From contig JANNVQ010000014.1 of NCBI GenBank assembly GCA_031414535.1, positions 293,961-357,960 on the forward strand: a stretch of DNA of 64,000 nt, in the 5' to 3' direction. This document shows, in pieces, positions 13,529 through 38,924 of this stretch. The number at the start of each line of letters is the position of its first letter. Position 1 is the first letter of the stretch. The notes beneath the pieces were generated by a model. It was not told the origin of the DNA. It saw only the letters and a program-made list of their open reading frames with translations, and did no database searches. The DNA comes from Gemmatimonas sp. GTDB lineage: Bacteria > Gemmatimonadota > Gemmatimonadetes > Gemmatimonadales > Gemmatimonadaceae. The position numbers were made by a program, and so were the translations under genes.

Positions 13529-13550
13529 ATTCTAGCGCCGGGAACCGACA
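13529..13550 (-). promoter_or_regulatory. PafBC-type promoter 1 (coiA-like/OLD/UvrD)
   Basis: Minus strand TGTCGG-TTCCCGGCGC-TAGAAT, an exact TGTCGG-N10-TANNNT match. Confidence 0.75.
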
Positions 13551-13575
13551 GCGAGGGCCGCCTTCTGTGAACCGA

Positions 13576-13610
13576 GCCGCCAGATCCGAGCGGATCTGGC
13601 GGCCCTTTTT
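13576..13610 (+). terminator. Intrinsic terminator hairpin
   Basis: GCCGCCAGATCCG-AG-CGGATCTGGCGGC followed by CCTTTTT. Confidence 0.7.
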
Positions 13611-14074
13611 GCGTTTCCCTCTTCTGGAATTGGCTCATTCTGGGCGAAGTAGGCTTCCGACCGCACCGCTCGGCTATTCGAGCTGGCGGCCTCACGGAGC
13701 GTAGAGGCCAGTCGATTCGGCCAATCCCACCGCAATCCCACTCGGAATCTTCTTCCAATGCCCCACGCATTAACTCGCCGCGAGGTGAGGGACTCGCGCC
13801 GGAGAGTGGGTATGCGAATTCCGGAATCGTGCCGTTTGCGGGACCAGCTACGTATCCCAGGGCTCTCCATCTCGACTCGAGTTCAGAAGCCCCCGTATCC
13901 GCTCACGAAGACGAGCTCCTGTCCTCAGACACTGGCAAGGCCCCTTACCCACCGCATCCCTCCGCAACAACGGAGTGCCCCGGCGACGAATAGCCGCCAA
14001 AGAAGGAGGCTTAATGCGAGCGGGGCGTGCTACGCACTCCCCGCCCCATCACTGCTCAAACGTCGGCAACCCCG

Positions 14075-17011
14075 TTAGCCACCCGACGTTGTGACATCGT
14101 CCGAAAGTCCGACGTCTCGGAGACCGCTCCGTAGCTCATCAGCCGTGTGCTGGTCCGTAGCAGGCTCGAATGGCATCCGGAACTCAACGCGCACCGTGAG
14201 TCCCGGCTTCGACGCGATGCGGGTGAGCACCTTCATGTAGAACGTGGTCCACTTCTGTATCGGGACTTGACCGGTCCAGCCGAGGGCTCGAGATGTGAGT
14301 TGCAGTTCGCTGTGGCGCTTGACGTTGGGAGACTCGTTCACTGCCACCGACACTTCCGCTTGCGCGGTGATGTCACCCGCAGCCACACGCACGGCGAACC
14401 TCCCGGTCTCCGCTCCAACCACCAGCTGTCCGTCGGGCGAGATTTCGCCCGTGGTTGTCGACCATGAGAGTGCAGGCTTCGACAGCTCGTGTCCGTACTG
14501 ATCGAACGCGCCGATGGTAAACTTGGCCTGCTCACCGGGCTGCAGCACTACGCTGTCGGGGCGCAACGAAAGCAGTGCCAATCGCGGTGGCTCAAGGAGG
14601 CGCTGCGCATCAGCAGACTTCAGGATGAAACAGTCTTCTGCGATTTCGACCTCGTGTTCCGACAGGTCCTCGTTGAATCGAACGAGCACGAGTCGGCCTG
14701 ACGCATCGCGATGCGCATAGCCGAGCAGTCCCTGCGACACGCCAGCCGCTATGCTTCGTTTGACGACCTCGCCGCGAATGAGGCGCGGCAGCAACGGCGA
14801 CGAGAAGAATGCATCCCTGAGCGCTTTGGTGGACCATTCCGTGAACGCGGGTGGCCAGTACTTCAGCAACCGGTTTGCACCAACGGCGTCCGTCACTTCG
14901 TCGTCCTTAATCATTCGATTGAGGATCAGCTCCGAGTGACTTCCCGCCATACTCGACGTGATCTGACCGAGATCTATCTCGCGGATGATGTTGTCTTTGC
15001 CGAGTAGATACAGATAGCGGTAGGAGCGCCACACGGCCTCGCGCAGGTCCTTCTTGGCCCGCTTGAGACTCTCGGTTAGTTGTCGACGCTGAATCTCATC
15101 CAACCGACCCTTGCTCTCATCGTCGTCGTCAACGGCTTCCCATGCGAGCAGACTGCGCGTCGCCTCGACCGCCGTGTTGCCCGGCGCCGGCGCCACAAAG
15201 ATCAGGGCACTCTTGAACGAGCGCGCTGAAGCTCCGGATTCACGGACAATCGTCTCCATGAGCTGGCGAGTCATTGGTTCCCCGGCTGGCGTCTCAGGGC
15301 CCATGATAACCAGTGTCAGCTCCGGCCGGTCGGGAACGTCATTACTCTTCGCCGGCGAGAAGCGGCGTTCGAACGTCTGCTGCCCTTCCTTAAATAGCGC
15401 CTCCGTTTCATCTCGCAATCTTTTCGCAATCACGTCGGCCTTCACCTCGGCTCGGCGCGTGACAAGGATCTGGTTCAGGTTGGGACTGAGGCTGAACCGA
15501 TAGCGGTTCTTGTCGCCACTCAGGTAGAAAGACGACGCGATGAGCTGTTCGAGCACATGGTCGACATCGGCCAGGTTGGTATCGGGCTCACCGACCGCCG
15601 TCTTGATCTCCGCGACGCTGGCTTCCGCCCGTGACTGGGATTGACCACCATTGCTTTCGAAGAAAATCGCTGTCGCAGTCTTCAGATGAAGACGAGACTT
15701 CCTGATCGACTCCGTGGCTTCCTTGTCGAGTCGCGCCGCGTGCGAGTCGTTTCGGCCAGTGATGTCCGAGATGACGGGTACTTCGAGGCGATCAGAGCCG
15801 AGCTGCTCGAACACCGCTGCTCGAAACGTCGGATCGTCGAGCGGAGCGGACCCCAAGGTTATTAGCGGCTCCTTCGCTGCCTGTCGATGCTCCTCCTGAT
15901 ATGCTCGCGCGACCCAAAGGGCGAGCAATCGCAGCACTCCCCGGGTTCGTTGAAAGCGCGGCAATCCTTGCCACTTTCGTTCGAACACCGACAGCACGGA
16001 CGGGTGGAACGGGTACGCTGACAGAAACAGGTCGTAAGCGGACGCGGCGTCGATGCCTGCTAGCTCGCCATTGTGCGCCACGGCCCAGCCGGCGTACTCC
16101 GAGATGGTCTTCTTGGCGTCCACAGAACTCCCGTGCCACTCAAACAAACGACGGCGGATGATCTCGGCGAACTCGGTCTCGGCGCTCATCATGATCGCTT
16201 TTCCGACGCGGTCGAGCAGTTTCTTCAGGGATTCGTGGTCACGCTGATCCTCAGCGTTCATCTCTAGTTCCGATGCGGGGATCGAAACGCAGAGCACCAT
16301 GTTGTCGCGTGCTCGGGCTTCCTCGGAGAGATTCTGGAGAAAGTTGTAGAGCTGGTCTCCGAGCTTGAGTTTCCGCGCACGGCTCACGTAGTTTAGCAAC
16401 TCATCCATCAGGATCAGCACAGGCCCGGCGGGGAGCATCTTTCGAATCACGTCTCCCGCAGGCGCGATCCCATCCGCGTCATGCTTTGCGACGGTCTCGA
16501 ACGCCTTTTCGCCGCCGAGCTGCCAGGCGATCTCCCCCCAAGGAGTGCGACGCTGCGGCTCGCCCTTGCCGCCGCGACCGTCGATCACGTCGAACTCCGT
16601 TCCTACGAATACCGCAACCGCCGCCGTGGGAACCTGTGTCACACCAGCCCGAGAGAGGATGCCATCTACGCCCTTCCACTCGGCTGCCGCCTTGCCGCCG
16701 TTAGCGAGGTGATACAGCGCTGTGAGAGAGTGTGTCTTTCCACCGCCAAACTGCGTGGCCATGTTGAAGACGGCCGACGTCTCGACCTTTATACCGGAAA
16801 GCCGGCGCACGACCTGGCTCGATAAGTCGAGCAGGCTCTTCGTCAGGTAGGTACGGTCGAAAAAGCGCCCCGGTTCCAGATAGTCGGGATGGGCCCGGTG
16901 ATCGCGGATGTGGTCGAGATGTACCGCGAACTCGCTGGCATCGAGCGGGCGGTTGTCGCGCAAATCTTCGCGCGGAGTCACCACCTGGTACCACGGTTTC
17001 AGTTTGGCCAT
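14075..17011 (-). CDS. DUF499-family AAA+ ATPase with a C-terminal Ig-like domain
   Basis: KPWYQVVTPREDL, TQFGGGKTH, LMDEL, YPFHP, FQRTRGVLR. Confidence 0.85.
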   Translation of the reverse strand: MAKLKPWYQVVTPREDLRDNRPLDASEFAVHLDHIRDHRAHPDYLEPGRFFDRTYLTKSLLDLSSQVVRRLSGIKVETSAVFNMATQFGGGKTHSLTALYHLANGGKAAAEWKGVDGILSRAGVTQVPTAAVAVFVGTEFDVIDGRGGKGEPQRRTPWGEIAWQLGGEKAFETVAKHDADGIAPAGDVIRKMLPAGPVLILMDELLNYVSRARKLKLGDQLYNFLQNLSEEARARDNMVLCVSIPASELEMNAEDQRDHESLKKLLDRVGKAIMMSAETEFAEIIRRRLFEWHGSSVDAKKTISEYAGWAVAHNGELAGIDAASAYDLFLSAYPFHPSVLSVFERKWQGLPRFQRTRGVLRLLALWVARAYQEEHRQAAKEPLITLGSAPLDDPTFRAAVFEQLGSDRLEVPVISDITGRNDSHAARLDKEATESIRKSRLHLKTATAIFFESNGGQSQSRAEASVAEIKTAVGEPDTNLADVDHVLEQLIASSFYLSGDKNRYRFSLSPNLNQILVTRRAEVKADVIAKRLRDETEALFKEGQQTFERRFSPAKSNDVPDRPELTLVIMGPETPAGEPMTRQLMETIVRESGASARSFKSALIFVAPAPGNTAVEATRSLLAWEAVDDDDESKGRLDEIQRRQLTESLKRAKKDLREAVWRSYRYLYLLGKDNIIREIDLGQITSSMAGSHSELILNRMIKDDEVTDAVGANRLLKYWPPAFTEWSTKALRDAFFSSPLLPRLIRGEVVKRSIAAGVSQGLLGYAHRDASGRLVLVRFNEDLSEHEVEIAEDCFILKSADAQRLLEPPRLALLSLRPDSVVLQPGEQAKFTIGAFDQYGHELSKPALSWSTTTGEISPDGQLVVGAETGRFAVRVAAGDITAQAEVSVAVNESPNVKRHSELQLTSRALGWTGQVPIQKWTTFYMKVLTRIASKPGLTVRVEFRMPFEPATDQHTADELRSGLRDVGLSDDVTTSGG

Positions 17012-17035
17012 TTGTTATCCGTTCGAAGTCGTAGC

Positions 17036-19966
17036 TCAGAGATTGAAACTCTTACGGCGGGCGAGCAAACCGTCCACCCATCGCTTCTCATCAGTTCCCG
17101 GTGGATACAAGGCCGAAAGCGACTGCGCGACTCGCCAGAATCGAGTATCGGTGCCGGCCCCGTCCTCCGTAAGGAATCGCTTGAGTGCCTCTCCGCGACC
17201 CGCCGAGAACAGCAGCATGCACTGATGGACCTTATCCAAGGTCGTACCAGAAGAAGCATTGTGGCCCACTTCAGAACTGGTAGACGGTGCAGCCTTCGAC
17301 ATCTCAGCCTCGGAGAACAGCGTCCCCTGTGGTCCATTCGTCGACCGGCCTACCACACGGCGCTGCACTTCCGTCGAATCGGTGAACAGCCAACGGGCGC
17401 GCTCGGCGACCGACAAGAGCCGGGCGGTCTCGCCCTTGACCTCGACAAGTGTCCCGAGCTCCTCCAAGTGAGCCCCGAGTCCTTGAGCAATCTTTCTCGC
17501 GGCGTCGAATTCCAGAACGTAGCCGCGAACCGGACTCGACTTTGCGTCGCTTCCGTCGTCCTCATCCGCTGCGTCGTTCTCTGACTCCTCGGTGGCCGTA
17601 CTCGGCCGACCGGCTCCCACCGTCCAAAGCCACATGGCCGTCAAGCGCGCGTCCGGTTCGAGACCTGCAGAGTCGGCACCATCGAAGATGGTGGAGAGTG
17701 CCTCGTTCGCGACCGCTCCCCATACGTGTTCCAAGTATTCGGAAAGCGCCACAACGTCGCCATTGGACTTCTCAACGCGGCTGTATCGGCTGAAGACCTC
17801 CAGTGCCGGCCCGATACATGCGAAGATTGCATCTGCACCCACAATGCCTTCCTTGGCGAGCCGCGGCATCCATTCGTGAATGCGTCCGGGTAACGCTGAA
17901 ATCACGTCGCGCCAGTCACCGACCGAGTCAGTTTCCACTTGCCCGTCTGGGCGCTCTCGTGGGCGGCAAACAAGGAAGATGGACGACTGGAGTGACGCCG
18001 AAGCCTGAGCGCGCGTTCTATTCTGCATCTCTGTGTCGACCGGCCACGACGCAGTCACGACCCATCCGCCTTCGATCACGGCGCGGAGCATTGCCTCCCA
18101 CGCTGTGGTACTGCTGTCGGCAAACACGATACAAGCGATCCCGCTTGGCTTTGTGATCTCGCGCGCTTTCGCCAGCGCTTGTGTCATTCCCTGCGAGAAG
18201 AACTCTTCATCTTTTGGTTCACCCGAAGGACCTGTCGCTGAGTTGGTGACAATCAACTCGCGTTGCTTTGCGACGAGTTCATCTCGAAAGTACGCGGCGT
18301 CGCGTCCGCGAAGCCCACGCTTTAGCCAGACGTAGAACACATCCGACAGGTCAGCGTACGGAATCGCCGCAAAATACGGAGGATCCGTGCAAAAGACGTC
18401 GACTGAATCGGCAGGCAACGGGACAGTTTCGGCGCTCGCACATTCGACGCGACCGGCGTGGTCGAGTATGAGATTCGACTGCAAGACCTTCGCAACCCAC
18501 TGCACAGCCGCCGGCCAACTCGCCATGACGTCATGGGTCGGATTGGATTCAGCAAAGTCCCACAGTATCTGAAGGGCTTGCTTGGAAAAGAGCCCTTCGA
18601 TCTTACTTCCAGTGTTGTTCCAGCGCGAAAGCGACGTGTTCTGCATTACAAGTCGGTCAAGCGCCAAGTGCAGAAGAGTCTCGACCGCGTCGTCCAATGC
18701 CTTGTCGGCTGCGCTCTTCTGGTCCAGAGATGAGTGAATTGCGTCCTGGAAGGCGACGATTGCCACCGCCTGACGAGCCGTGTAGAGGTCCAAGAAGCGG
18801 CGCATGCCAAACCGCGTCACGCCACTGATGCCCCTTGTATTCGCATAGGGACGAGTCGGATTGATAGGCTCCGTGGGAAACACACCCGGTCGGCGCTTCT
18901 GCATATCCGCGTAGGCAGCGGTAGCGGCAGCGACAGCGGCCACATCATTCCTGTTTGGAGCGCGAAACGAACGGGCTCCGTTGTGCTCGACCAAGACCGC
19001 ATATAGGCGCGCCGTGTTCGCTCCTCCGAACACGGCCGTCATCTGCTCCTTTACACGCTTCGCCGACGTCGTGTAGCCGCAGCGCACGCAGGTAGCCTTT
19101 CCACCACTCACGGTGGCTGTAGTTCGCTTTTCAATGCCGCTGACTAGCTCGGTGAGGACCTTGCGCCCAGAGGCGGATACCAGCACGTGCGCGACGGGCG
19201 ACTTTCGCGAGAGCTGGGTAGCGCGCAGCAACGGCAGTTCCACACCGCATCCTGGGCCCTCGCACTGGATAGTACGCGCCCAGAGGTAGGCGATGGGAAC
19301 CGCCTTGTTGGCGTCACGTGGATAGAGCGGCGCGAGCGTCCGTTGCGCCTCCTCAAGCACCGCGTTCGCACGTTCGCGAAGGCGATCGATCAAACGTTGA
19401 CCGAAAGCGGGCAGGTACTCCAGAATCACCTTGTTAAGGAGAACAGGCACCGGGTTAAGGTCGGACGCAAACGCGTCCGCGCCTATCCGCACTGCTTCCA
19501 GAGGTATTGCTCCGCCACCAGCAAAAGGATCAACGACGAGCGGACGAGTCCCCCTCTCGCCCCCGAGTGCTTCGTGGGCCGCGTTCACAAGAGCACGGGC
19601 AGTCTCCAAGAAAATTCGTTCGTCAGCGTGATCCCAGTTTGCGAACTCAGCGATAAAGTCGAGCAGCCCGAGTCGCAGCGCCATCGGATTCCGCCAGTCG
19701 CGTTCCTCTCCGCCTCGCTCATCGCGGAACTTCTTGAGCCATGTTCCGCAAGAATTGACAAAGGACGCTGGACATTCCGGGTCTGCAGGGTCCGGCAAGA
19801 GGGCGCCAAGCAACGCGGCTCGCGCGGACGCAAGCGGACGCCGGGCCCACCAGATGTGGAGCGTCGAGATATGTCCGTGACGTAGAGTCTTCTCTCGGCG
19901 CGATTGATTCGACACCTCTGCAATCGGCAGGTCAACTTCGATGAGGCGCTTAGGGTAGTTGTGCAT
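17036..19966 (-). CDS. DUF1156 zinc-ribbon adenine DNA methyltransferase
   Basis: KRLIEVDLP, LHIWWARRPL, DPFAGGGAIP, CxxxxC..CxxCG, TDPPYF; start at MHNY. Confidence 0.9.
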   Translation of the reverse strand: MHNYPKRLIEVDLPIAEVSNQSRREKTLRHGHISTLHIWWARRPLASARAALLGALLPDPADPECPASFVNSCGTWLKKFRDERGGEERDWRNPMALRLGLLDFIAEFANWDHADERIFLETARALVNAAHEALGGERGTRPLVVDPFAGGGAIPLEAVRIGADAFASDLNPVPVLLNKVILEYLPAFGQRLIDRLRERANAVLEEAQRTLAPLYPRDANKAVPIAYLWARTIQCEGPGCGVELPLLRATQLSRKSPVAHVLVSASGRKVLTELVSGIEKRTTATVSGGKATCVRCGYTTSAKRVKEQMTAVFGGANTARLYAVLVEHNGARSFRAPNRNDVAAVAAATAAYADMQKRRPGVFPTEPINPTRPYANTRGISGVTRFGMRRFLDLYTARQAVAIVAFQDAIHSSLDQKSAADKALDDAVETLLHLALDRLVMQNTSLSRWNNTGSKIEGLFSKQALQILWDFAESNPTHDVMASWPAAVQWVAKVLQSNLILDHAGRVECASAETVPLPADSVDVFCTDPPYFAAIPYADLSDVFYVWLKRGLRGRDAAYFRDELVAKQRELIVTNSATGPSGEPKDEEFFSQGMTQALAKAREITKPSGIACIVFADSSTTAWEAMLRAVIEGGWVVTASWPVDTEMQNRTRAQASASLQSSIFLVCRPRERPDGQVETDSVGDWRDVISALPGRIHEWMPRLAKEGIVGADAIFACIGPALEVFSRYSRVEKSNGDVVALSEYLEHVWGAVANEALSTIFDGADSAGLEPDARLTAMWLWTVGAGRPSTATEESENDAADEDDGSDAKSSPVRGYVLEFDAARKIAQGLGAHLEELGTLVEVKGETARLLSVAERARWLFTDSTEVQRRVVGRSTNGPQGTLFSEAEMSKAAPSTSSEVGHNASSGTTLDKVHQCMLLFSAGRGEALKRFLTEDGAGTDTRFWRVAQSLSALYPPGTDEKRWVDGLLARRKSFNL

Positions 19967-19976
19967 TCGCTCTCGA

Positions 19977-22900
19977 CTAAGCCGGGACTGCGGCTGCGGT
20001 GAGTTGCGACATCGCGAGCCGATAGTGTTCGACGACGACAACCGCCTGCCAGCCAAGGGTCGCGGGGTTGTTGATCAGACGAAGGTCAGGCTTCGAACTG
20101 CAGTTGAACACGACATAGAGCCAATAGTCGCCGCCGAGCCGCTCAGCCGTCCGGTGTTCGTTCGAGGTTAGCGCGACATCGCCGACAGCGGAGCGTCCCT
20201 TCACCTCGATGAAACGCACTTCAGTGAAAGTCTTGACGTCTTCCGGGTGCGGCTTTCGCGAAATCAGATCGAAGCCACGATTCTCGCTCTCGACGCTCTC
20301 GACCACCCAACCGCGAGCGCGTTCGTACGCCATCGCCGTGTCGACCGCGATCCGTTCGACCTCCTCATCGCGAACCATGGGCGCGTACTGTGGCTCCGCC
20401 CGCTCCGGGTGAGGCAACACCCACGCGCGCCCAAGATGCGTAAGATCGCTCACAGTACAGTGCCGCTCCATGTCCAAGTCCTTGCGGCGCGCATCGAGGC
20501 GGTTGTTGAGCGTATCCAGGTGCGTCTCAGCCTGAGCGATAATGCCATCAAGGCCCGGGGTGGTGCGACCGTCCTCCTGACGACTCAGAAACTCCGCGAG
20601 CTGGAGTTGCTGTCGGTCGATGAGCGCCTGAAGACTGATTTCGACGTGTTGCGCGATTCGGTCAACCTCCTGAGAGCGCTGGGTAGCGGTCTCCGCAAGC
20701 CAAGGCGCGAGGCTCTGCGAGTACAAGTGCTCTTCGGAGACTTGGCGTGCCGGCAGCGGCAGGTCCGGCGCAAGCGTCCCCTTAGGCGCTGGGTTTACGT
20801 CGTGAAAGACTGTCGGCTGCCTGATCGTTACCGTGCCGTTCGGAGCTGTCTCAACCACGAACAGTCTCCGGTGCAAGGTGTTGCCGCGCCCGTCCTTGAT
20901 GGAAGCCGCAAAGACGTCCCACAGCGCCGACTCCTTTCGGTGCAAATCAAAGAACACCGTACCGCGGTTGAGATCGTCTGCCGTGCGCTCGGCAATTTCC
21001 GTACGAACTGCCTCGAAGAGCGGATGGCCCGGAGTGACCCATTCGAGCGTTGGGTCTGCTTCCAGCAACTGCTTATCGAAGACGACCTTGCCGAACTCTC
21101 TTCCCAGTCGCCCGTATCGCGGCTCTTGCCGATCACCGATGGCGACGAGCAGGCGCGGAATCTTGCCGATACGGTAGATGTGCGTACTCGGCCCTGTGGG
21201 ATTTGGCGAAAGCCCTGCTTCGGCAGCTGATGCGGTGAAGAAATCTTCGATCACCTCGGGGACGAGGCGACGTTCCTTCGCTTCAACCGCGCGATTGATA
21301 AGCGACGAGAGATTCAGATTACGCCGTGCAAGACCTTCAAGGGCGCTTTCGGTAATTGCTCTGAAACGCTCGGGGTCGACGTCGTGCACAATCCGATCCT
21401 GCACCTGATTCACGTCGAGTTGACGGAGGTACATCTCGCGGAACAGTCGCTCGATAGTTGATGCCGGAAGCACTTCTCCAACGACGTCAAAGACCTGGTC
21501 GGTTCCGAGCTCGTTCCGGATCTCTTTGAGACGATCAAGCAACTTCTGCAGCACGCGTCCTTCGCGCGTGTTCTGCGCAACGAAATTGAAGACGAGGCAA
21601 TCGTGCTCCTGTCCGTAACGATGGATGCGTCCGACTCGCTGTTCGAGGCGCATCGGATTCCAAGGGATGTCGTAGTTCACCATGAACCAACAGAACTGCA
21701 GATTGATTCCTTCCCCCGCCGCTTCCGTGGCGACGAGCACCTGACAGCTTTCTCGGAACTCCCGCTCCGCGTAGATACGGGAACCGGGCGTGTCGCGGTC
21801 TCCGATCTTCATTCCGCCGTGGATCTGTGTGACGGATAGTCCCATGTCGCGGAGACGCCCTACAAGGAAGTCGAGCGAATCTTTGTGCTCCGTGAAAATG
21901 AGCACTTTCATGGTTGGGTCTGAGAACACCCCCTCTTCGGACAGGAGCGTCTTGAGTCGCGTGAGCTTGCTTTCAACCTCGCGTTTCTCGAGGGCGCACG
22001 CTTGGATGATGAGCTTTTCGAGATTGGCGATCTCTTCGCGGAGCGACGTAGGGTCTACTGACGCAACCACGTCCTCGAGTTTCGCGAGAATCTCCTGCTT
22101 TTCTTCGTCTTCGAGTTCGTCAAAGTCATCAGGCACTTGCCGATCGATTTGCGCTTTGCGGTACGCTTCCGGATCCTCAAGTATCAGACTCCGCTTGTCT
22201 TTCATGCGCTCAAGCGTTCGACGCACCGCGTAGACTGTCGACGCCATGCGGCGCTGCAGCATCGCCATGGTGAATCCGACGGCTCGGCCGCGTGTTGCAT
22301 CCTCGCTCGATGCACGAATGCTCTGGTCCTCGACGTAGTGCGTCAACGAGTCGTAGAAATCGAGCTCGTCCCCGTCGAGGTCGAACGCGGCGGTACGCAC
22401 CTCGCGTTTTGTGAATAGCTTGCGCACTTCCCCCGTCTCCGGATCGGGGAAAGTGACTAGCGCTTCCTTGGTACGCCTCAGGTAGAACGGTGCAACGTTC
22501 TTACGCATGGCCTCCTTCAGACTCGCCACGTCGCCGTAGACGTCCTTGTCAAGCAACGCGAGGAAGAGACAGAAGTTCTCCGGGTCTCCTTTATGAGGCG
22601 TTGCTGTCATGAGGAGATAGTGATCGGTCATCGTCGACAGCGACTCGCCCAGACGGTATGCAAGCGTCTTCCGGTCGTCGGCGTACGCCGCCATCTTGTG
22701 CGCCTCATCGACGATCACCAGGTCCCACCGGGATCTGAGCAAGCTTTCGCGCGCATCTTCTATCCGCGACACCCAGGATACCGACGTGATCGCCTGATCT
22801 ACGTCTTGCCACGGATTCTGGCCGTAATTGGCGCGAAGCACATCGCTCCTGATGACGCTAAAATCCTCCCGAAACTTGTCCTTCATTTCGCGCTGCCACT

Positions 22901-23384
22901 GGAACGTCAGGTTGGCCGGTGTGACGATCAGTACCCGCTTCACCAAGCCACGCGCCTTGAGTTCCTTGAGCAGCAAACCGGCCATCACCGTCTTGCCGGC
23001 GCCTGGATCGTCGGCCAGAAGGAAGCGGATTCGCGGGAGTGGTAGGAAGTAGTCGTACACTGCCTCCAGTTGGTGAGGCAGCGGATCTACCCTTGCGATG
23101 GAAAGCGAGAAATAGGGGTCGTATTCGTAGGCGAGGCCAAGTCGAACGGCCTCGACTCCGAGGCGAAACTTCCGCGCATCACCGTCGAACGGATCGCGGT
23201 CGGCCGAGACCGTGAGTTGCGCCAGCTGAGCCATTGTGAGGATCGGATCGCGCGTCAGACCCGTTTCCAGTCCGCGTCCAATCACTTTCACGGCCTGCCC
23301 CATCGGCTGAACCGCAAGCACTTCGATCGGCTCAGGAAGCGTGGGTCCGCGGACGATCATCCCGGGCCGGAGGGGTTCTCTCAT
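19977..23384 (-). CDS. SNF2-family helicase with C-terminal DUF3883 nuclease-like domain
   Basis: LADDPGAGKT, DEAH, MTATPH, WNPMRLEQRVGRIHRYGQ, GFDLIS...IEVKGR. Confidence 0.9.
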   Translation of the reverse strand: MREPLRPGMIVRGPTLPEPIEVLAVQPMGQAVKVIGRGLETGLTRDPILTMAQLAQLTVSADRDPFDGDARKFRLGVEAVRLGLAYEYDPYFSLSIARVDPLPHQLEAVYDYFLPLPRIRFLLADDPGAGKTVMAGLLLKELKARGLVKRVLIVTPANLTFQWQREMKDKFREDFSVIRSDVLRANYGQNPWQDVDQAITSVSWVSRIEDARESLLRSRWDLVIVDEAHKMAAYADDRKTLAYRLGESLSTMTDHYLLMTATPHKGDPENFCLFLALLDKDVYGDVASLKEAMRKNVAPFYLRRTKEALVTFPDPETGEVRKLFTKREVRTAAFDLDGDELDFYDSLTHYVEDQSIRASSEDATRGRAVGFTMAMLQRRMASTVYAVRRTLERMKDKRSLILEDPEAYRKAQIDRQVPDDFDELEDEEKQEILAKLEDVVASVDPTSLREEIANLEKLIIQACALEKREVESKLTRLKTLLSEEGVFSDPTMKVLIFTEHKDSLDFLVGRLRDMGLSVTQIHGGMKIGDRDTPGSRIYAEREFRESCQVLVATEAAGEGINLQFCWFMVNYDIPWNPMRLEQRVGRIHRYGQEHDCLVFNFVAQNTREGRVLQKLLDRLKEIRNELGTDQVFDVVGEVLPASTIERLFREMYLRQLDVNQVQDRIVHDVDPERFRAITESALEGLARRNLNLSSLINRAVEAKERRLVPEVIEDFFTASAAEAGLSPNPTGPSTHIYRIGKIPRLLVAIGDRQEPRYGRLGREFGKVVFDKQLLEADPTLEWVTPGHPLFEAVRTEIAERTADDLNRGTVFFDLHRKESALWDVFAASIKDGRGNTLHRRLFVVETAPNGTVTIRQPTVFHDVNPAPKGTLAPDLPLPARQVSEEHLYSQSLAPWLAETATQRSQEVDRIAQHVEISLQALIDRQQLQLAEFLSRQEDGRTTPGLDGIIAQAETHLDTLNNRLDARRKDLDMERHCTVSDLTHLGRAWVLPHPERAEPQYAPMVRDEEVERIAVDTAMAYERARGWVVESVESENRGFDLISRKPHPEDVKTFTEVRFIEVKGRSAVGDVALTSNEHRTAERLGGDYWLYVVFNCSSKPDLRLINNPATLGWQAVVVVEHYRLAMSQLTAAAVPA

Positions 23385-23615
23385 TCGCTGCGGGTTTCCT
23401 GATGTGGCCCGGCGCGGCGGAAGAATGCCGGGCACGGGCGCATGGATTGAGCAAAGCGTCGTGTTATCGGAAGGAAAACTACCCGCCGGGTCTGGGGCTG
23501 ACGAGTAGTCGTCTGCGGTGATCGCGGCGATGCACGATCCGCACTGCCCTCCCGCCGCTCATCGCAGCCGCTTGACCGCAGCATCGAACGTGGAACTGAT
23601 GTGGTATCGGACACG

Positions 23616-23637
23616 AAGGTACGTTCGCCCTCCGACA
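23616..23637 (-). promoter_or_regulatory. PafBC-type promoter 2 (SNF2-DUF1156-DUF499 operon)
   Basis: Minus strand (T)TGTCGG-AGGGCGAACG-TACCTT, about 230 nt upstream of the SNF2 ATG. Confidence 0.7.
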
Positions 23638-23813: not shown

Positions 23814-23853
23814 TCAGGACGGCGGGATTCGAACCCGCGACCCTCTGAGCCCT
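23814..23853 (-). mobile_element. att-site remnant: 3' half of a tRNA (probably tRNA-Pro)
   Basis: Minus strand GGGCTCAG-AGGGTC-GCGGG-TTCGAAT-CCCGC-CGTCCTG-A gives anticodon 3' strand, T-arm and acceptor strand; the 5' half is absent. Confidence 0.75.
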
Positions 23854-24166
23854 ATGAAGGTTCCCGAGAATCCGCGAGAAATCCGACGCATCCACAAACT
23901 CAATTCGCGCAAGCACTTACGTTGGGCATGACAGCTGTGCGTGTAGCTGCGCCACCGGCCGCAACCTGGAGTTCGCACACGAATGGCACTCTAAATCACA
24001 GATTGTACATATATCGCAAACGGCGTGGCACCCGATGGGACGAGGGCTAACCCACGTGCAGCAGGTTAATCTTAGCGTCCCCGCGAGAAATCCTCGACAA
24101 TCAGCGACCCCGCAGAGCCTTCGATCCGCTCAAAGCAAGCACCGTCTTATTGATTGGACCCGAAGT

Positions 24167-28651: not shown

Positions 28652-29989
28652 TCAGCTAGTACGCGGCTGGCGCCCCAACATCTCCCCCACCGACCCCCTC
28701 CCCCGCCCTCTCAAATCACTCTCCCCCCGCCCACTCTTCACCCGCGCAACATACACCTCCTTCATCACCCGCCCATCCATCCGCCCCGACACTTGGCCGT
28801 ACAACAACTCCAACTCCCGCAACAGCCCACTCACCCCCTCCAACCCACGCGCATACCGCTTCATCAGCGTCATCTCCTTCCGCAGCTCCCGCCGCGCCTC
28901 CTCAAACCGCCCCGCCCGGTTCAACTGCAGCGCCTCCCGAATCGCCACACCCTGCCAGGCCGCAAGCGCCGCCACACTCCGCTCCATCTCCCGCTCCTGC
29001 GCGCCGTTCGCCGATTCCTCCGCAAACGTCAGCGTCGCCACCTGAGCCTCGGCCTCAATCACCGCCGACCCATCCGGCAGCTGAGCACTCAAAGCCGCAG
29101 CAATCTCAAAGGCCTGCCCTGCGACCCCGGAATGGCAGAACACACGAATCACGACACGCTTCACCTGCTCCGGCCGCAGACTCCCCACCAGCACCTCCAA
29201 CCGCCGCCCACGCGCCGTCGCACCCCAAGGCCCCACCACCTCGGCGCGCTCAATCTCCGCCGGCAATGCAATGCAAAGCACCGCACGCTCCACCAGCGAC
29301 TCTCTCCCTTCGAGCAGCTCGCCGAGCACCACCTCGTGGATCTCGCTCGCATCCGTAGCATCGTGCAGACGTCCGCCACCAGCCTCAGTCATCGCGGCGA
29401 GCAGGGCTTCGTCATAGTCATCACCAATGCCAACCGCCGAGGTGATGATGCCCCCGCGCTGCGCATCCGCCGTGAACCGCGCGAGCGTCGGCGCATCGGC
29501 GATCCCGATGTTGGCGAGCCCATCCGTGAGCAGCAACACGCGGTGCGACGCACGCGCATCGGCTTCCATCGCCGCAGCCACGCGGCCGGCGGCGAGATCC
29601 CATCCACCAAAGAGATTGGTCGAGCCCTTGGTCTCGAGCCGCGCAATCGCAGTCTTCGCCGCGCGACGACCCGCGGCATCCATCTTCTTCGCTTCAAGCA
29701 GCAGTTCCACATCATCACTGAACGCGATGATGCTGAGGCGATCCTTCGAGGTCAGTGCATCAACCACTTGAGCCGCCGTCGCGCGCGCGGCCTCGAGCTT
29801 CTCACCACCCATCGAACCCGACACATCCACCGCCAACGCGAGATTGAGCGACACACGCTCGGCGGCCTGAAGGACCGTGCCGTTCGCCGAGATGTCGGCG
29901 ACGAGATATCGGACGGACTCGCCGGCTTCCCATACGAGGGCGCGGTCGGGTCCGAAGGTGAGGCTGAGTTGGGGACGCTGGGCAATCAT
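28652..29989 (-). CDS. vWA domain protein (MIDAS)
   Basis: DVSGSM, GSTNL, LLTDGLAN; AGGAG RBS before MIAQ. Confidence 0.9.
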   Translation of the reverse strand: MIAQRPQLSLTFGPDRALVWEAGESVRYLVADISANGTVLQAAERVSLNLALAVDVSGSMGGEKLEAARATAAQVVDALTSKDRLSIIAFSDDVELLLEAKKMDAAGRRAAKTAIARLETKGSTNLFGGWDLAAGRVAAAMEADARASHRVLLLTDGLANIGIADAPTLARFTADAQRGGIITSAVGIGDDYDEALLAAMTEAGGGRLHDATDASEIHEVVLGELLEGRESLVERAVLCIALPAEIERAEVVGPWGATARGRRLEVLVGSLRPEQVKRVVIRVFCHSGVAGQAFEIAAALSAQLPDGSAVIEAEAQVATLTFAEESANGAQEREMERSVAALAAWQGVAIREALQLNRAGRFEEARRELRKEMTLMKRYARGLEGVSGLLRELELLYGQVSGRMDGRVMKEVYVARVKSGRGESDLRGRGRGSVGEMLGRQPRTS

Positions 29990-30029: not shown

Positions 30030-30051
30030 AAGATCGGGGTGGGGTCTGACA
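30030..30051 (-). promoter_or_regulatory. PafBC-type promoter 3 (vWA)
   Basis: TGTCAG-ACCCCACCCC-GATCTT. Confidence 0.65.
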
Positions 30052-32408: not shown

Positions 32409-32505
32409 CGGCCGCCTGGGCGTTCGTTTAGATACATAACGTAACCGTTATATTCGGGAATCGCAAGCATTCGCGTTCTCCACGACAGCGGACTCATCCA
32501 CAAGT

Positions 32506-32569: not shown

Positions 32570-32586
32570 GAGCGTTGTGCGGGAGT

Positions 32587-33074: not shown

Positions 33075-33611
33075 CTAGTCCTCAGCCGCCAGCAAGCCCG
33101 CAATCTCCCCGTACGCAAACGTCTGCTGCACCGTCCAAGCAAAGCCCCTGAGCATCCCCACCATCTGCTGCGGCGAGACCCCGTACTGATAGCTCATCGC
33201 ATAATCCGCGCAGACCAGCCCGTCGTTGGCAGAGCGAATGCGCACGACATCGGTCTCGAGATTGGCCAGCCTTAAGCTCTCATTTAGGGCCGCCTCCGGC
33301 ACAAAGGGCTTGAGCGCGCGGAGCAGTAGGAATCGCAGCAGCGAGCTATCGGGCGTGAGGATGATGTGAACTTCCTCTCCGAACACGACCGCGACGAGGT
33401 CATCCTCATCATCGCGATACGAGGCGATGCCCGCCGCGCGGAGCAAGGCCTCAATCTTCTCCTTGTTCACACTGCGCTCTGCGATGCGCCGCATCTCGCG
33501 CAGGGCCTTCGGCATCTCAGCTATCTGCTGCCCCGTGCTGAGATCTAGGATGTGCTCCACTCCGTCCTCGACGGCGAGCGTGATCAGCTCTTGCTGCGAC
33601 TCCTTTGGCAT
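33075..33611 (-). CDS. Hypothetical protein, possible YbjN/T3SS-chaperone-like fold
   Basis: 178-aa ORF with GGAG RBS; fold assignment is weak. Confidence 0.6.
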   Translation of the reverse strand: MPKESQQELITLAVEDGVEHILDLSTGQQIAEMPKALREMRRIAERSVNKEKIEALLRAAGIASYRDDEDDLVAVVFGEEVHIILTPDSSLLRFLLLRALKPFVPEAALNESLRLANLETDVVRIRSANDGLVCADYAMSYQYGVSPQQMVGMLRGFAWTVQQTFAYGEIAGLLAAED

Positions 33612-33638: not shown

Positions 33639-33660
33639 AGGATAAGGAGGGGGTCTGACA
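33639..33660 (-). promoter_or_regulatory. PafBC-type promoter 4
   Basis: TGTCAG-ACCCCCTCCT-TATCCT. Confidence 0.75.
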
Positions 33661-33700
33661 CTCCCATCGACTCATCCCCGGGTTCGAGTTCGGGGACCGA

Positions 33701-33722
33701 TGTCAGTCACTCAGCGTAGGTT
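33701..33722 (+). promoter_or_regulatory. PafBC-type promoter 5 (near-leaderless)
   Basis: TGTCAG-TCACTCAGCG-TAGGTT, 8 nt before ATG 33731. Confidence 0.75.
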
Positions 33723-33730: not shown

Positions 33731-33952
33731 ATGACCTACACACCCGAACTTTTGACAGAACGAGAAGAAGGCGAGCTCCTCGGCGCTCTCACGCGCGTGA
33801 AGCACGAGATGGGAGTGGACGCGTACAACGCCTGGGCGGACAAGCTCATTATGCAGCACAAGGCGTATCTGCTGAAGAACGCGAAGGCGGACAATCCTGC
33901 CCTGATCCGTCTCAAGCAGTTGATGCTCATTGAGGAACGCGGGTTCCTGTAA
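33731..33952 (+). CDS. Small hypothetical helical protein (73 aa)
   Basis: Bounded by a promoter and a terminator; protein-like composition. Confidence 0.65.
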   Translation: MTYTPELLTEREEGELLGALTRVKHEMGVDAYNAWADKLIMQHKAYLLKNAKADNPALIRLKQLMLIEERGFL

Positions 33953-34031: not shown

Positions 34032-34496
34032 CTACCGCTGCAAAGCGCCAATACGCACCCAGGCCGGATCCACCCGCGGGACCATCAGCACATAGATGCC
34101 ATTCGCCTGCAACTCCGTGCCCGCACCCTGACGCGCCAGCTGCGCACTCAACTGCTCCGGCGTGAGGTTGTACAGGCCGCCGCTGATTGCATCCACGGCA
34201 AGTCCGATGATCCCGCCAAAGACGATGTTGCCCCACACCCAGCCTGACACCTTCTTGGTGAGCGTCGCCTCAAACGGCTGATAGCCGTCGAGCTCAATCT
34301 TCACGATGTGGTTGTCACCGCGCGCAAGCTTGGCCACCAACGGAGTCTGGCCCAGCGGCATGTTGTTCACCGTGACGCGGGCGTTGGTGGGGCTACTGGA
34401 AATTCCGATATCCTGCTTTGTGCCGTGCATGATGCTGGCACAGGCGCCGAACGAGAGCGCGGCGGCAAGAACAACGAGTGGACGACGAAACAGCAT
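34032..34496 (-). CDS. PEGA-domain lipoprotein
   Basis: Lipobox FGAC; ISSSPTNARVTVN..GQTP; GNIVFGGIIGLAVDAISG. Confidence 0.85.
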   Translation of the reverse strand: MLFRRPLVVLAAALSFGACASIMHGTKQDIGISSSPTNARVTVNNMPLGQTPLVAKLARGDNHIVKIELDGYQPFEATLTKKVSGWVWGNIVFGGIIGLAVDAISGGLYNLTPEQLSAQLARQGAGTELQANGIYVLMVPRVDPAWVRIGALQR

Positions 34497-34533: not shown

Positions 34534-34555
34534 AATTTCGGTGCCCCCTCTGACA
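34534..34555 (-). promoter_or_regulatory. PafBC-type promoter 6 (PEGA gene)
   Basis: TGTCAG-AGGGGGCACC-GAAATT. Confidence 0.6.
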
Positions 34556-34969: not shown

Positions 34970-36225
34970 TGTTGAGCACTCCGTGGAAGCCAATCACTCG
35001 CGTCGAGGTTTTCTACCAAGACGATGGCGAGCCACAACTCGTCGGCCGCTTGGCTCTCGACGCGAATGCTGTGGCGTTCTTCCAGTACGAGCTCGCGTGG
35101 ATTGATGGTGGACGTGAACTCTCACCCGTTCAGCTCGCGCTCGCGCTAGGCCGTACCGTTGTCGAAGCGCCAGACAAAGACAAGCTGCACGGATTGCACG
35201 GACTCTTCGCTGACTCCCTCCCCGACGACTGGGGATGGCGCGTCATGAACTCGGCGTTCCTCCGGCACGGCATTCAAGCGAGCAAGGTCACGGCGCTCGA
35301 CCGCCTTGCATACCTGGGCACACGCACGATGGGCGCGCTGACGTACCGGCCGGCGCTCGACTGGCCCGCCGATACGGAGCAAGTGGCCACGCTCGATGCG
35401 CTGGCACGCGAAGCTGCGATGCTCGATGAAGGCAAGCGCGATCTGCAGTCCTCTGCACCATCAGCGATTGATCAGCTCGAACGCGCAGCGGGAACGCCTG
35501 GCGGCGCGCAGCCGAAGCTGCTCTACACCGCGGATGGCAAAGAGTACGTATTGAAGTTCACGCCAGAGCGCGAGCGCAACCGGCTGCGCATGGACTGCGG
35601 ACCAATCGAGCAGGCCTACGCGCAGATGGCCAAGGACGCGGGCATTGATATGCCAGCAACTCGGCTCTTTGCCACAACAGATGGGCGACTGCACTTCGCA
35701 GCACTGCGCTTTGACCGCACAGCAAGCGGAGGACGGCGCCACGTGCACACGCTTGGAGGTCTGCTCGGCCGCGAAGCCAGCGACGACGGTGACTACGATG
35801 AACTCCTGCGCGTGGCAGGTGGACTCACGGGTGACGCTCGTACGTTTGATGCAATTCTGCTGCGCCTCTGCTTCAACCTACTCGTGCTCAACGACGACGA
35901 TCATCTCAAGAACGTCGCCTTCATCTTGGACCCCACAGAAGGGTGGCAGCTCGCGCCGGCCTACGATTTGACGTACTCGCCTTCGGTCCGCGGCGAACGA
36001 GGGTTGAGCGTTGACGGCCGCGGGGCGGACGTCACCTGGAGTACCGTGGAGGCCCTCGCCGCACGGCACCGCGTGAAGCGCGACCGACTGCGTGAGATGC
36101 GCGACGCGGTGGAGCGCTGCATTCGTAACTGGGAGACATACGCCAGCGATGCGCAGGTTCAGCCAGATAGCATGAAGGAACTCGAGAGCGCGTTCAGCCA
36201 GCGGGCGAAGTCACTCGCGCTTTAG
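34969..36225 (+). CDS. hipA: HipA-family kinase toxin
   Basis: DSLPDDWG, GGAQPK, RFDR, NDDDHLKN, LAPAYD. Confidence 0.9.
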   Translation: MLSTPWKPITRVEVFYQDDGEPQLVGRLALDANAVAFFQYELAWIDGGRELSPVQLALALGRTVVEAPDKDKLHGLHGLFADSLPDDWGWRVMNSAFLRHGIQASKVTALDRLAYLGTRTMGALTYRPALDWPADTEQVATLDALAREAAMLDEGKRDLQSSAPSAIDQLERAAGTPGGAQPKLLYTADGKEYVLKFTPERERNRLRMDCGPIEQAYAQMAKDAGIDMPATRLFATTDGRLHFAALRFDRTASGGRRHVHTLGGLLGREASDDGDYDELLRVAGGLTGDARTFDAILLRLCFNLLVLNDDDHLKNVAFILDPTEGWQLAPAYDLTYSPSVRGERGLSVDGRGADVTWSTVEALAARHRVKRDRLREMRDAVERCIRNWETYASDAQVQPDSMKELESAFSQRAKSLAL

Positions 36226-36237: not shown

Positions 36238-36750
36238 TCACAGCGGGAATCCCAACCCGCGCGCCGCATCCGCATCCTCAATCCGATGGTACCCACGCCC
36301 CCACGCCAGCCGGCGTAACTCCGGGTCCGCCGAGGCCAGCGTACTCATATACCGATCATCCGGCGCGTTCCCCAGCCGCGACAAATCCAACCGGTCCGCA
36401 TCATAGCAGCACCCAATCGTCGGATCCTTGGAGCGCTTTTCTAAAGTATGCCCCGCGCAGGCCTTCGTCAGCGTCTTGAGGCGCGCCCGCTCCAAGGTGA
36501 TCACCCCCTCGGCGGATAACCGCTCCACAAACTCCGCCGCCCGCGCGCCGTGCTCAAGGTCCTCGTACTCGTCAAAGCGCTGCGAGTCATGGAGTAACGC
36601 AAACAACTCCACCACCTCACGGTCCGCATCCGGCGTAGCATCCGCCAGCGCGAGCCCGTTCGTACGCACCCGCAGCCAGTGCCACACGCCGTGCGTGCCG
36701 CGAAGGTTGAGCCGATACTCACCGAGAATGGACTGAACGATGCGATTCAT
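36238..36750 (-). CDS. HD-domain phosphohydrolase
   Basis: HGVWHW, LLHD, HG, DADRLDL; start 36750 fits a leaderless promoter (alternative 36756). Confidence 0.85.
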   Translation of the reverse strand: MNRIVQSILGEYRLNLRGTHGVWHWLRVRTNGLALADATPDADREVVELFALLHDSQRFDEYEDLEHGARAAEFVERLSAEGVITLERARLKTLTKACAGHTLEKRSKDPTIGCCYDADRLDLSRLGNAPDDRYMSTLASADPELRRLAWGRGYHRIEDADAARGLGFPL

Positions 36751-36758
36751 ATCCATAT

Positions 36759-36780
36759 AAGCTCCGGCAGGGGTCTGACA
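36759..36780 (-). promoter_or_regulatory. PafBC-type promoter 7 (HD gene)
   Basis: TGTCAG-ACCCCTGCCG-GAGCTT, 8 nt before ATG 36750. Confidence 0.7.
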
Positions 36781-36808
36781 TCAAAGATGCGGCAGCCATC
36801 TAGTGCCC

Positions 36809-36830
36809 TGTCACCCCCAGCGCACATCTT
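36809..36830 (+). promoter_or_regulatory. PafBC-type promoter 8 (pafBC autoregulation)
   Basis: TGTCAC-CCCCAGCGCA-CATCTT, 6 nt before ATG 36837. Confidence 0.6.
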
Positions 36831-36836
36831 TGGCCC

Positions 36837-37911
36837 ATGAGCGCCAATCCCACCCAACCCAAGGTCCAGCGCTGGACCGATCTCCTCGCCGCGCTCCTGC
36901 GCCGCAACTTCCCCGTGGACTTCGCCACGCTTCGGAAGGAAGTCCCCGCCTACAGCGAGGACGGCCGCTCGGAAGCCACCACTATGCGAATGTTTGAGCG
37001 CGACAAGGACGACCTGCGCGCGCTCTGCGTTCCCATTGAATCCGTCCCCGACGAAGATGGCAATCTCAGTCGGTATCGCCTCGCGTCCAAGCATTTCTAT
37101 CTGCCGTATCTGCACCTGGCCTCAGAGCGTCCAAAGCAAATCAAGCGGCCGCGCGGCCCTGGCTACCAAGGCCTCTCAACTCTGGCCTTCGAACCCGAAG
37201 AACTCGACGCCGTCGCCCGCGCCGCGCAGCGCGTGGCCGCACTCGGCGACCCTGCACTCGCGCACGAGGCCCGCGTGGCGATGCGCAAACTGGGACACGA
37301 TCTCCCCATCGCCGCCGCATCCACGTCCACCGAACACATCGCACTCGACCAGGCCCCCGCCGCCGCGGTGCTCGATCTCCTCAACGACGCACTGCGCCGC
37401 CGTAAGTCGCTCACGTTCATCTACCGCTCCATGCAGCGCGACGCCGCCGACCAACGCAGTGTGGAGCCCTTCGGCTTGGTATTCCTCTCAGGACACTGGT
37501 ATCTCATCGGCCGCGATACAGTTGCCGATGCGCGCCGGCAGTTTCGTGAGTCGCATCGCCAGTGCCACGGTGAACGACAAGCGTCCGCAATCCACCGACT
37601 TTGATGTCCCCGCCGACTTTGACCTCGCGAGCTACGCACGCTCGCGGCAGGCTTGGGAAATTGGTGATGCCGATCAGCAGGCCGTGGACGTGGAGTTCGC
37701 ATCCGAGAATGCGTACACCGTGCCGGCTATGCAGCTCGGCGCAGCAGTGGATGGTTTTCCAAAGCGCCGACGCTTCCAAGTGCGACGCCCCGACACCTTC
37801 GCGCTTTGGATACTCGGCTACGCCGGTGACGCGCGCATCGTGAATCCGCCGGAGCTTGCACTACGCGTTGCGCAGCTCGCCACGGAGACGCTGGCTGGGT
37901 ACTCGCTATGA
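36837..37911 (+). pseudogene. pafB: PafB-like HTH-WYL-WCX regulator, frameshifted at about 37546
   Basis: RMFERDKDDLR, VEPFGL..WYLIG..RQFR; continuation VSRI..DFDVPADFDL..VNPPEL lies in another frame. Confidence 0.85.
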
Positions 37912-38924
37912 CACCCAGCGACAACGGCAACGCCACCAGTAGCAGTGCCACCAGTAGCAGTGCCACCACAGCCGCTGAGCAACTGCGTCGCCTGCTTCTC
38001 GCGCTGCCCGCGCTCGCGGACGATCAAGTGCATTCGGTGAAGGACATCGCCGAGCGAGTTGGTACCACGGACGAAGTCATCCGACGCGACCTCACCACAT
38101 TGGTGAACCGTGTGGCCGAGGAGCCCGGCGGATTCACCGAAGGCGTCTCACTGCTGCTGGGTGCGGACACCGTGCAGTTCGTCACGCCGAGCGGGCACTT
38201 CAGGCGCCCGATGGCACTGACGCGGACGGAGTTGGAGGCATTGGATCTTGGATTGGCCATGCTCGCGCAGGAGTCTCCTCCGGACGAGCGCGCTGTTATT
38301 GCTCGGGCCCGCGAACGTGTACGCGCGGCGGCAACGGCTATCCCAGCCGATGATCCCGCTGAGGCCACAGATCGCGTGGCAGCGTTAGGGCAGGAACGGG
38401 AGACCAGCGTGGAGATGCGACGTGTAGTGCAGGAGTGCATTCGCACGCGTCACGTCGCGAGCATTCGCTATCTGTCGGCGTCGAGGAATGTTGTGGATGA
38501 ACGCCGCGTACGGCCGCTTGGCTTGGTGTGGGCGAGAGGGAGTTGGTTCATCGTCGCCTTTTGCGAACGGAACGACGGCATCCGTGTGTTTCGCCTAGAT
38601 CGCGTGCAGGCTGTGAAGCGCGAGGAAAGCACGTTCACGCCGCCAAGTGAGTTCTCGTTGGAGTCTGTGCTGCGCGACGGTAAGGTGCTAACCGGTCAGG
38701 AGACGGTACAGATGCGTGTGCGGTACTCGGCGAACATTGCGCGCTGGATTTCGGAGCGCGAGAATGTTGTGGAGGAGGCGGATGGGTCGGTGGTGATGGA
38801 CGTTCCCGTGCTGAGCGAGGCTTGGGCGGTAAGACGGGTGCTCAGGTATGGGCCGGATGCGGTGGTGGAAGCGCCGGAGAGTATTCGGGAGTTGATGCGG
38901 GAGCAGTTGAAGTTGCTTGCGTAA
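37908..38924 (+). CDS. pafC: PafC-like HTH-WYL-WCX regulator
   Basis: LRRLLLALP..IRRDL, RPMALTRTE, RRVRPLGL..WFIVAFC..RVFRLDRV, YGPDAVVEAPE. Confidence 0.88.
   Translation: MTPSDNGNATSSSATSSSATTAAEQLRRLLLALPALADDQVHSVKDIAERVGTTDEVIRRDLTTLVNRVAEEPGGFTEGVSLLLGADTVQFVTPSGHFRRPMALTRTELEALDLGLAMLAQESPPDERAVIARARERVRAAATAIPADDPAEATDRVAALGQERETSVEMRRVVQECIRTRHVASIRYLSASRNVVDERRVRPLGLVWARGSWFIVAFCERNDGIRVFRLDRVQAVKREESTFTPPSEFSLESVLRDGKVLTGQETVQMRVRYSANIARWISERENVVEEADGSVVMDVPVLSEAWAVRRVLRYGPDAVVEAPESIRELMREQLKLLA

Follow-up and report, generated by a model that had tools for sequence, protein, structure and literature searches.

PafBC-type regulator genes and predicted −26/−10 promoters in a Gemmatimonas genome

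Sigma adaptation by the WYL-domain proteins PafB and PafC (PafBC) has been described in mycobacteria and proposed for Actinobacteria (PMC8635444), and the mycobacterial promoters read tGTCgg-N10-tA-N3-T (PDB 7P5X, 9FND, 6SJ9; PMC8635444, PMC11804915). There, PafBC controls recA and most of the response to damage, and it is itself not inducible (PMC8682763). Two papers mention PafBC-like architectures in further phyla but do not analyse promoters (PMC6789036, PMC7617703), and one of them, a review, calls the conservation of PafBC systems an open question (PMC7617703). Here we describe a pafB-pafC pair and its predicted promoters in a 64,000-nucleotide (nt) stretch, the window, from the 3.7 Mb genome (G000, 98% complete) of Gemmatimonas sp., a member of the Gemmatimonadota. 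We found no paper on PafBC or WYL damage responses in this phylum, and no study of PafBC outside Actinobacteria was named among the matches listed, in a search of the openly available literature.

Other WYL systems resemble this locus in part. DriD of Caulobacter and DdaA of Moraxellaceae are activators outside Actinobacteria that sense single-stranded DNA (ssDNA), and DdaA couples the damage response to defence genes, but its site lies ~50 bp upstream of the start and its authors argue against sigma adaptation (PMC12392091). Whereas DriD and DdaA are single-gene regulators with a site upstream of a complete promoter, we found two paralogues and a −26/−10 promoter in which the site replaces the −35 element. 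BrxR and CapW are likewise HTH-WYL-WCX proteins in defence islands, but they are single-gene repressors whose operators are inverted repeats, in contrast to the PafB/PafC pair and the asymmetric sites phased to a −10 element found here. For ARPP and ADP-ribosylglycohydrolase genes with a linked WYL regulator (ARG/ARPP-WYL neighbourhoods; PMC9503650), control by a repressor and sensing of ADP-ribose were proposed, whereas in our data such genes follow a predicted PafBC-type activator promoter.

The regulator pair

The two regulator genes are:

36837..37911, plus strand: pafB orthologue, HTH-WYL-WCX (WYL in 36837-37604; WCX in the frame ending at 37911)
37908..38924, plus strand: pafC orthologue, HTH_PafC-WYL-WCX (Pfam HTH_PafC 40.1 bits, cut-off 32; WYL; WCX)

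These tandem genes, each encoding an HTH-WYL-WCX protein, are the sole WYL pair of the host genome. An earlier note, made from the letters of the window, had described the pair at 36837-38924 as PafB/PafC-like and as a non-actinobacterial PafBC, and Pfam domains, solved structures, sequence relatives and a tree agree with that description. The closest solved structures are those of PafBC (6sj9, 9fnd, 7p5x) for the PafB of a relative with an intact gene, and 6sj9 and the PafC of 7p5x for the window PafC, with which DriD-type structures scored far below PafC. Among the matches listed, the best PafB relatives are from Gemmatimonadota, followed by Actinomycetota at ~30-36% identity, and the homologues of PafC and of the host sigma factor are from Gemmatimonadaceae wherever a name is given. 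In a quick IQ-TREE analysis (89 rows subsampled from 196, SH-aLRT support), the PafB proteins of Gemmatimonadota form one clade (98), which joins actinobacterial PafB against all PafC (100). By this tree, the host PafB and PafC are separately orthologous to their actinobacterial counterparts; as the tree samples only two phyla, we claim no donor. PafB had no match in the plasmid collection searched, and neither WYL protein fell into an NCBIfam family.

The HTH residues with which PafB recognises GTC in the mycobacterial complex (PMC8635444) are present in the host (R46, R50, K5, R8, K52 and R56, equivalent to R51, R55, K9, R12, K57 and R61 of the window protein), with the equivalents of R46, R50 and K52 invariant among eight aligned PafB proteins. 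Five of the six ssDNA-binding residues of the PafB WYL domain (PMC11804915) are kept (R181, Y196, R208, R211 and R214), and at PafC R201/R204 the window protein keeps FRLDR.

A frameshift near 37545 divides the window's pafB between two reading frames; in relatives it is a single frame. Around this position, Logan contigs from two sequencing runs (X1 and X2) are longer than the window by two bases and otherwise identical to it, and a run from a related strain (X3) likewise has two extra bases at the frameshift. Because X1, possibly the source sample, and X2, from the same study, carry the intact frame, an assembly error is the simplest explanation and probably the correct one, and the "repaired" PafBC that the earlier note called for appears unnecessary.

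Two further observations concern the neighbourhood of the pair. In several relatives of the class, a protein of ~400 amino acids (aa) with a weak Pua-like domain is encoded between the promoter and pafB (L153:8474-9655, L123:138-1382). Just 3' of pafC in the window (39063-40996) lie genes for an NYN protein (PADLOC HEC-09) and an AAA-DUF4143 protein (PDC-S01), the latter also adjoining pafBC in G011 and G036.

Promoter sites and their dependence on pafB

The earlier note listed eight intergenic TGTC[AG][GC]-N10-nAnnnT sites, each with an exact 10-nt spacer and each pointing into a gene. A pattern scan of the window recovered all eight, and by our own gene calls each is intergenic and directed into a gene; their TGTC starts lie at 13550, 23637, 30051, 33660, 34555 and 36780 on the minus strand (the note's minus-strand coordinates being the low ends) and at 33701 and 36809 on the plus strand. 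An in-frame ATG follows three of them at 6-8 nt, again as claimed: 36809 (6 nt, pafB), 33701 (8 nt) and 36780 (8 nt, the second ATG of the HD gene). The six sites at 30-37 kb and the genes behind them, of which one is an open reading frame (ORF) of no known family, are:

36809..36830, plus strand: predicted PafBC-type promoter of pafB, 6 nt before the ATG, leaderless (20.4 bits; 0 expected at other spacers)
36759..36780, minus strand: predicted PafBC-type promoter before the HD gene, divergent from pafB (21.5 bits)
36238..36756, minus strand: HD-domain protein, 172 aa (weak Pfam HD)
34534..34555, minus strand: predicted PafBC-type promoter with a G-run spacer, before the PEGA gene (12.1 bits)
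34032..34496, minus strand: PEGA-domain lipoprotein-like gene (Pfam PEGA)
33701..33722, plus strand: predicted PafBC-type promoter, 8 nt before the 73-aa ORF (13.5 bits)
33731..33952, plus strand: conserved 73-aa ORF (81% identical homologue in G012)
33639..33660, minus strand: predicted PafBC-type promoter before the YbjN-like gene, the genome's top site (25.0 bits; kept in G012)
33075..33611, minus strand: YbjN-like protein, 178 aa (Pfam YbjN)
30030..30051, minus strand: predicted PafBC-type promoter before the vWA gene (24.8 bits)
28652..29989, minus strand: vWA-domain protein, 445 aa (Pfam VWA)

Between 13400 and 39000 the pattern has nine matches at spacer 10 and one to four at each of the other spacers from 6 to 14. 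The genome-wide scan that the earlier note proposed gave a divided answer: the loose pattern does not stand out (at spacer 10 it has 335 matches vs 139-318 and, between genes, 34 vs 12-31), whereas intergenic TGTCAG-N10-nAnnnT does (16 at spacer 10 vs 2-6 elsewhere, yet 14 at spacer 5). A first matrix, built on the hexamers only, showed no spacer-10 excess in upstream regions genome-wide at 12 bits (10 vs 3-12), and neither did a second one, curated from 62 sites that exclude those of the window, below ~16 bits. Because both matrices lack a genome-wide excess at lower scores, the predicted regulon is a handful of sites and not global. This second matrix has the consensus TGTC-A-(C/G)-A-(C/G run)-N-(T/C/G)A-n-n-n-T and places the ninth match in the window, 33012(+), at chance level (7.7 bits). 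Six sites of the genome score at least 19.8 bits, and at 20.4 bits or more other spacers give 0 expected. Four of these six (33660, 30051, 36780 and 36809) are in the window, at most 10.6 kb from pafBC, and the other two stand before a DUF2779 gene (C49) and a lipoprotein-like gene (C5), both links being found again in relatives. The lower-scoring sites at 33701 and 34555 rest on conservation in relatives. Taken with that conservation, the six predicted promoters near pafBC (pafB, HD, PEGA, 73-aa ORF, YbjN and vWA) are well supported.

The architecture of the sites is that of a promoter with a −26 element and a −10 element 10 nt apart and no −35. Since host housekeeping promoters peak at TTG..-17-(T/C)AnnnT (152 vs 29-62 at other spacings), we read the second hexamer as the host −10, and TTG occurs at −35 in only 2 of the 62 curated sites. 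Start codons peak 6-7 nt past the site (13/62), as expected for leaderless mRNAs. The held-out test below shows the motif, TGTCAS-ACCC-N6-YAnnnT without a −35, to be real. The likely primary sigma factor is a protein of ~288 aa, in whose homologues Pfam recognised no region 1.1.

PafB is patchily distributed, occurring in 51 of the 201 genomes of the class. We fixed a refined pattern, TGTCASWCCC-N6-YANNNT, on the first 41 genomes and applied it to new ones, with 80 of the 142 genomes lacking pafB as the negative set. In this held-out test it gave 45 matches in 25 of 47 pafB-positive genomes and 8 matches in 7 of 80 pafB-negative genomes, and spacers of 8, 9, 11 and 12 gave 5, 3, 4 and 5 matches vs the 45 at spacer 10. 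The contrast holds within families f8 (10/13 with pafB vs 1/24 without), f7 (5/8 vs 2/21) and f2 (6/10 vs 1/11), and the counts in two further families are 2/4 vs 1/6 (f1) and 1/3 vs 1/2 (f4). The proposed PafBC-type promoter therefore follows pafB across the class. The autoregulation that the earlier note had also suggested is matched by position: of the 68 distinct loci from Gemmatimonadota, 26 have a site within 250 nt upstream of pafB (other spacers give 1-3), compared with 1 of 42 actinobacterial loci. In six relatives (G011, G012, G014, G021, G023 and G035) the pafB start follows the site by 6-7 nt, and in G005 and G006 the distance is greater.

This distribution bears on two other explanations of the motif. 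It could belong to another factor, such as a short sigma-70 paralogue or an unlinked regulator, and merely travel with the pafBC locus: the host has three short sigma-70-like paralogues without region 1.1 (L326:1492-2391, L327:1324-2214, L328:154-1113; none of the three reaches the RpoD_Cterm cut-off), a few genomes have strong sites and no WYL gene found, and some matches in pafB-positive genomes physically adjoin pafB. However, matches per genome are ~tenfold more numerous with pafB, many of them on other contigs, and the motif with its 10-nt spacer is the PafBC consensus, in genomes whose GTC-reading arginines are invariant; we consider this explanation improbable. Still less probable is that the sites match by chance, are −35 boxes of divergent promoters read in reverse (CTGACA/GTGACA) or are remnants of transposon ends, such as those with a Tn3-like GGGGTCTGAC start. 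The abundance of the loose pattern and a host recA match that is not conserved speak for this explanation. The fixed 10-nt phase to a same-strand −10, the retention of hexamers despite spacer turnover and the dependence on pafB argue otherwise, and largely refute it for the six sites at 30-37 kb, but not for 13550, 23637 and 33012.

A third explanation is that PafB and PafC are repressors that, like BrxR or CapW, block ordinary promoters until ssDNA frees them. An autoregulatory position within a defence island is typical of BrxR and CapW (PMC9122601), and the ARG/ARPP-WYL neighbourhoods have been interpreted as repressor-controlled (PMC9503650). Against this, each site stands alone, lacks symmetry and keeps a fixed phase to a −10 without a −35, and the proteins are PafB/PafC orthologues with the recognition helix of an activator, and we regard repression as very unlikely.

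It should be noted that several observations weigh against activation of the PafBC type. Family f5 shows no contrast (1/8 pafB-positive vs 1/10 pafB-negative genomes), and the strict pattern is absent from 22 of the 47 pafB-positive genomes. The genomes compared are kin and not independent, so that Fisher p values overstate the association, and the 62-site matrix was seeded with the pattern of the earlier note. Strong sites occur without a WYL gene being found in G083 (C125) and G047 (C1:722746), the latter one contig and 99% complete; the assemblies may have gaps, or the sites may have outlived a regulator that was lost. At the protein level, the equivalent of PafB R204 is not kept, PafC D62 (D/E) is replaced by S in the window protein and is variable in relatives of the clade, and the host sigma factor has E where SigA has the contact residue S446, while keeping the equivalents of R416 and R442, in a provisional alignment to SigA.

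Three side observations concern the sites. There are two back-to-back promoter pairs in the window (33639-33722 and 36759-36830). Run X3 has a loose end at 36800 which suggests that the pafB promoter pair is joined there to other divergent sequence, a hint at gene turnover behind fixed promoters. A variant site, TGTCTG-tcccc-TATTTT (14.4 bits), stands before an MmeI-type restriction-modification gene (G000:C14:244466, L332).

Target genes, the SOS core and the defence island

The vWA subfamily was searched independently of the motif, with a protein of G125 as query (the window's own vWA falls below the cut-off), and was found in 12 of 51 pafB-positive and 4 of 150 pafB-negative genomes; a site of at least 18 bits precedes it in 9/12 and 1/4 of these, respectively, three of the nine being in the training set. 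All four PEGA homologues carry a site (18.7-23.5 bits), at loci chosen by motif or by pafB, and a near-identical twin of the 34555 site stands before vWA in G021. In G012, the 33701 site keeps both hexamers and its 8-nt distance while the spacer differs; the 73-aa ORF had no match in Pfam or Atlas. HD homologues occur in 9 of 62 pafB-positive genomes, and because none of the nine carries the site, the HD link is local. Among the window genes behind the sites, vWA, PEGA, YbjN and the 73-aa ORF thus recur with the site in relatives and HD does not.

In relatives, the site precedes, among others, genes for AddB-like PD-(D/E)XK proteins of ~1000 aa (six loci), RecC, RmuC, DUF2779, a DnaQ-type exonuclease, an RNase-H/helicase fusion, Smr, BRCT, Cas4 and an SNF2 helicase. 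ADP-ribose genes (ARPP-1 at four loci, ADP-ribosylglycohydrolase at two) also follow it, as do genes for Pua-like, vWA and PEGA proteins, an M48 peptidase and outer-membrane barrels, and many further candidates have no Pfam family.

The SOS core appears to be controlled separately. A site above 10 bits precedes recA in 1 of 12 pafBC-positive and 1 of 18 pafBC-negative genomes and is not conserved, and we rejected recA as a target. Before recA, a TTCG-N7-TTCG direct repeat (often TTCGG..TTCGG) is conserved across the order (upstreams L033-L062), and in the host two copies stand before each of lexA, recA and an imuA-like gene (C37:4395-4435, C32:1265-1320, C5:159685-159735). We propose this repeat as a candidate LexA box of Gemmatimonadota, for which we found no paper on a LexA SOS box. 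The host also encodes a second LexA-like protein with an intact HTH and an atypical C-terminal domain (G000:C27:4744-4932, L324).

The pair lies in a defence island that contains Gabija, a CoiA-like gene, Hma, an OLD-like nuclease and several toxin-antitoxin pairs. The part that bears on the two remaining sites comprises:

23616..23637, minus strand: uncertain candidate site 180-230 nt before hmaA (15.2 bits, 8 expected by chance genome-wide)
14075..23435, minus strand: Hma anti-phage system, HmaA, HmaB and HmaC (PADLOC E 1e-186, 2e-113, 9e-121)
13529..13550, minus strand: uncertain candidate site 56 nt before the CoiA-like gene that precedes gajAB (13.5 bits, 20 expected by chance)
12693..13472, minus strand: CoiA-like gene (Pfam CoiA_N)
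9425..12551, minus strand: Gabija gajA-gajB (PADLOC GajA E 6e-207, GajB E 6e-161)
9163..9202, no strand assigned: tRNA-Pro-like 3' fragment, left boundary of the element (82.5% over 40 nt to 23819-23858)
23819..23858, no strand assigned: tRNA-Pro-like 3' fragment, right boundary of the element (matches 9163-9202)

Both tRNA-Pro-like fragments resemble G000:C40:10347-10388, and to judge from these boundaries the Gabija-CoiA-like-Hma block (9163-23858) is a separately integrated element, in which no integrase was recognised. PafBC might also drive Hma and the CoiA-like gene with Gabija, and defence would then be armed by ssDNA that arises from damage or comes from invading DNA. In favour of this, both sites are intergenic, directed into their operons and without a −35 (the 13550 site follows a hairpin and has a strong TAGAAT −10, with no TTG at −35), the motif stands in relatives before an SNF2 helicase (G221), Cas4 (G036), an HsdS-like gene (G035) and ADP-ribose genes, and the WYL activator DdaA controls defence systems (PMC12392091). 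However, their scores are in the chance range, both read TGTCGG, with a G at position 5 that only 7 of the 62 training sites share, and they sit in the separate element. HmaA was not found in 62 pafB-positive genomes at E 1e-60, and the site precedes 0 of 57 CoiA-like homologues (of 76 fetched, short or poorly placed loci being left out). We consider such control possible but doubtful, and with it the regulon wired across the defence island that the earlier note described.

The toxin-antitoxin cluster (30124-32955, 34652-36225 and 41311-42787) includes VapBC-like, HTH-Fic, orphan HTH, MqsA-type antitoxin and two HipBA-like pairs. We disregarded a tRNA-Ser that ARAGORN placed at 5850-5933, within sufD.

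A predicted ssDNA response in a second phylum

Based on these results, we think it likely that ssDNA-activated PafBC redirects the housekeeping holoenzyme to −26/−10 promoters, amplifies its own expression and induces accessory genes beside a LexA-run SOS core. Orthology, residues, promoter anatomy, spacing, co-occurrence and targets are read from sequence, while dimerisation, ssDNA sensing, activation, sigma adaptation and the inducing stress are carried over by analogy with the mycobacterial system. On this model, a PafB-PafC heterodimer would become active when its WYL domains bind ssDNA; the PafB HTH would read the TGTC (−26) element and the housekeeping sigma the YAnnnT −10, 10 nt downstream, with PafC substituting for the missing −35 contact. 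As pafBC would belong to its own regulon, often through leaderless mRNAs, feedback would be positive. The small accessory regulon seen in relatives would supply DNA-end-processing nucleases and helicases, ADP-ribose-linked genes, vWA and envelope proteins, and recA and imuA would be left to the LexA-like box.

With the mycobacterial and actinobacterial systems, the host shares an orthologous pair, the recognition-helix arginines, five of six PafB ssDNA residues and a two-part promoter whose elements stand 10 nt apart, without a −35. Its orthology and its promoter make it a member of the PafBC family. In contrast to mycobacteria, it belongs to Gemmatimonadota, where its distribution is patchy (51/201), and its consensus is TGTCAS-ACCC; no Pup ligase was found in the 98% complete host genome, hence no linkage to pafA or a Pup-proteasome locus. 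The site also stands before pafB itself, whereas mycobacterial PafBC is not inducible (PMC8682763). Furthermore, recA is not a conserved target, each genome has few sites vs about 150 genes in mycobacteria, the primary sigma is short and lacks region 1.1, and the D62/S446 contact is altered. A bolder version, which we regard as rather unlikely, is that sigma adaptation with a short sigma and an altered PafC-sigma contact, detached from the SOS core, forms a self-amplifying ssDNA alarm that new genes, including whole anti-phage systems (Gabija and Hma, on an element integrated recently), join by acquiring a 22-bp promoter.

Overall, our findings suggest that PafBC-type redirection of RNA polymerase has been rewired in a second phylum, where the same promoter logic with another sigma factor and another regulon would provide a natural test of what sigma adaptation needs. 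For the poorly studied Gemmatimonadota, the promoter signature groups uncharacterised vWA, ARPP-1, DUF2779 and YbjN proteins, PEGA lipoproteins and a 73-aa protein into one predicted ssDNA-triggered response.

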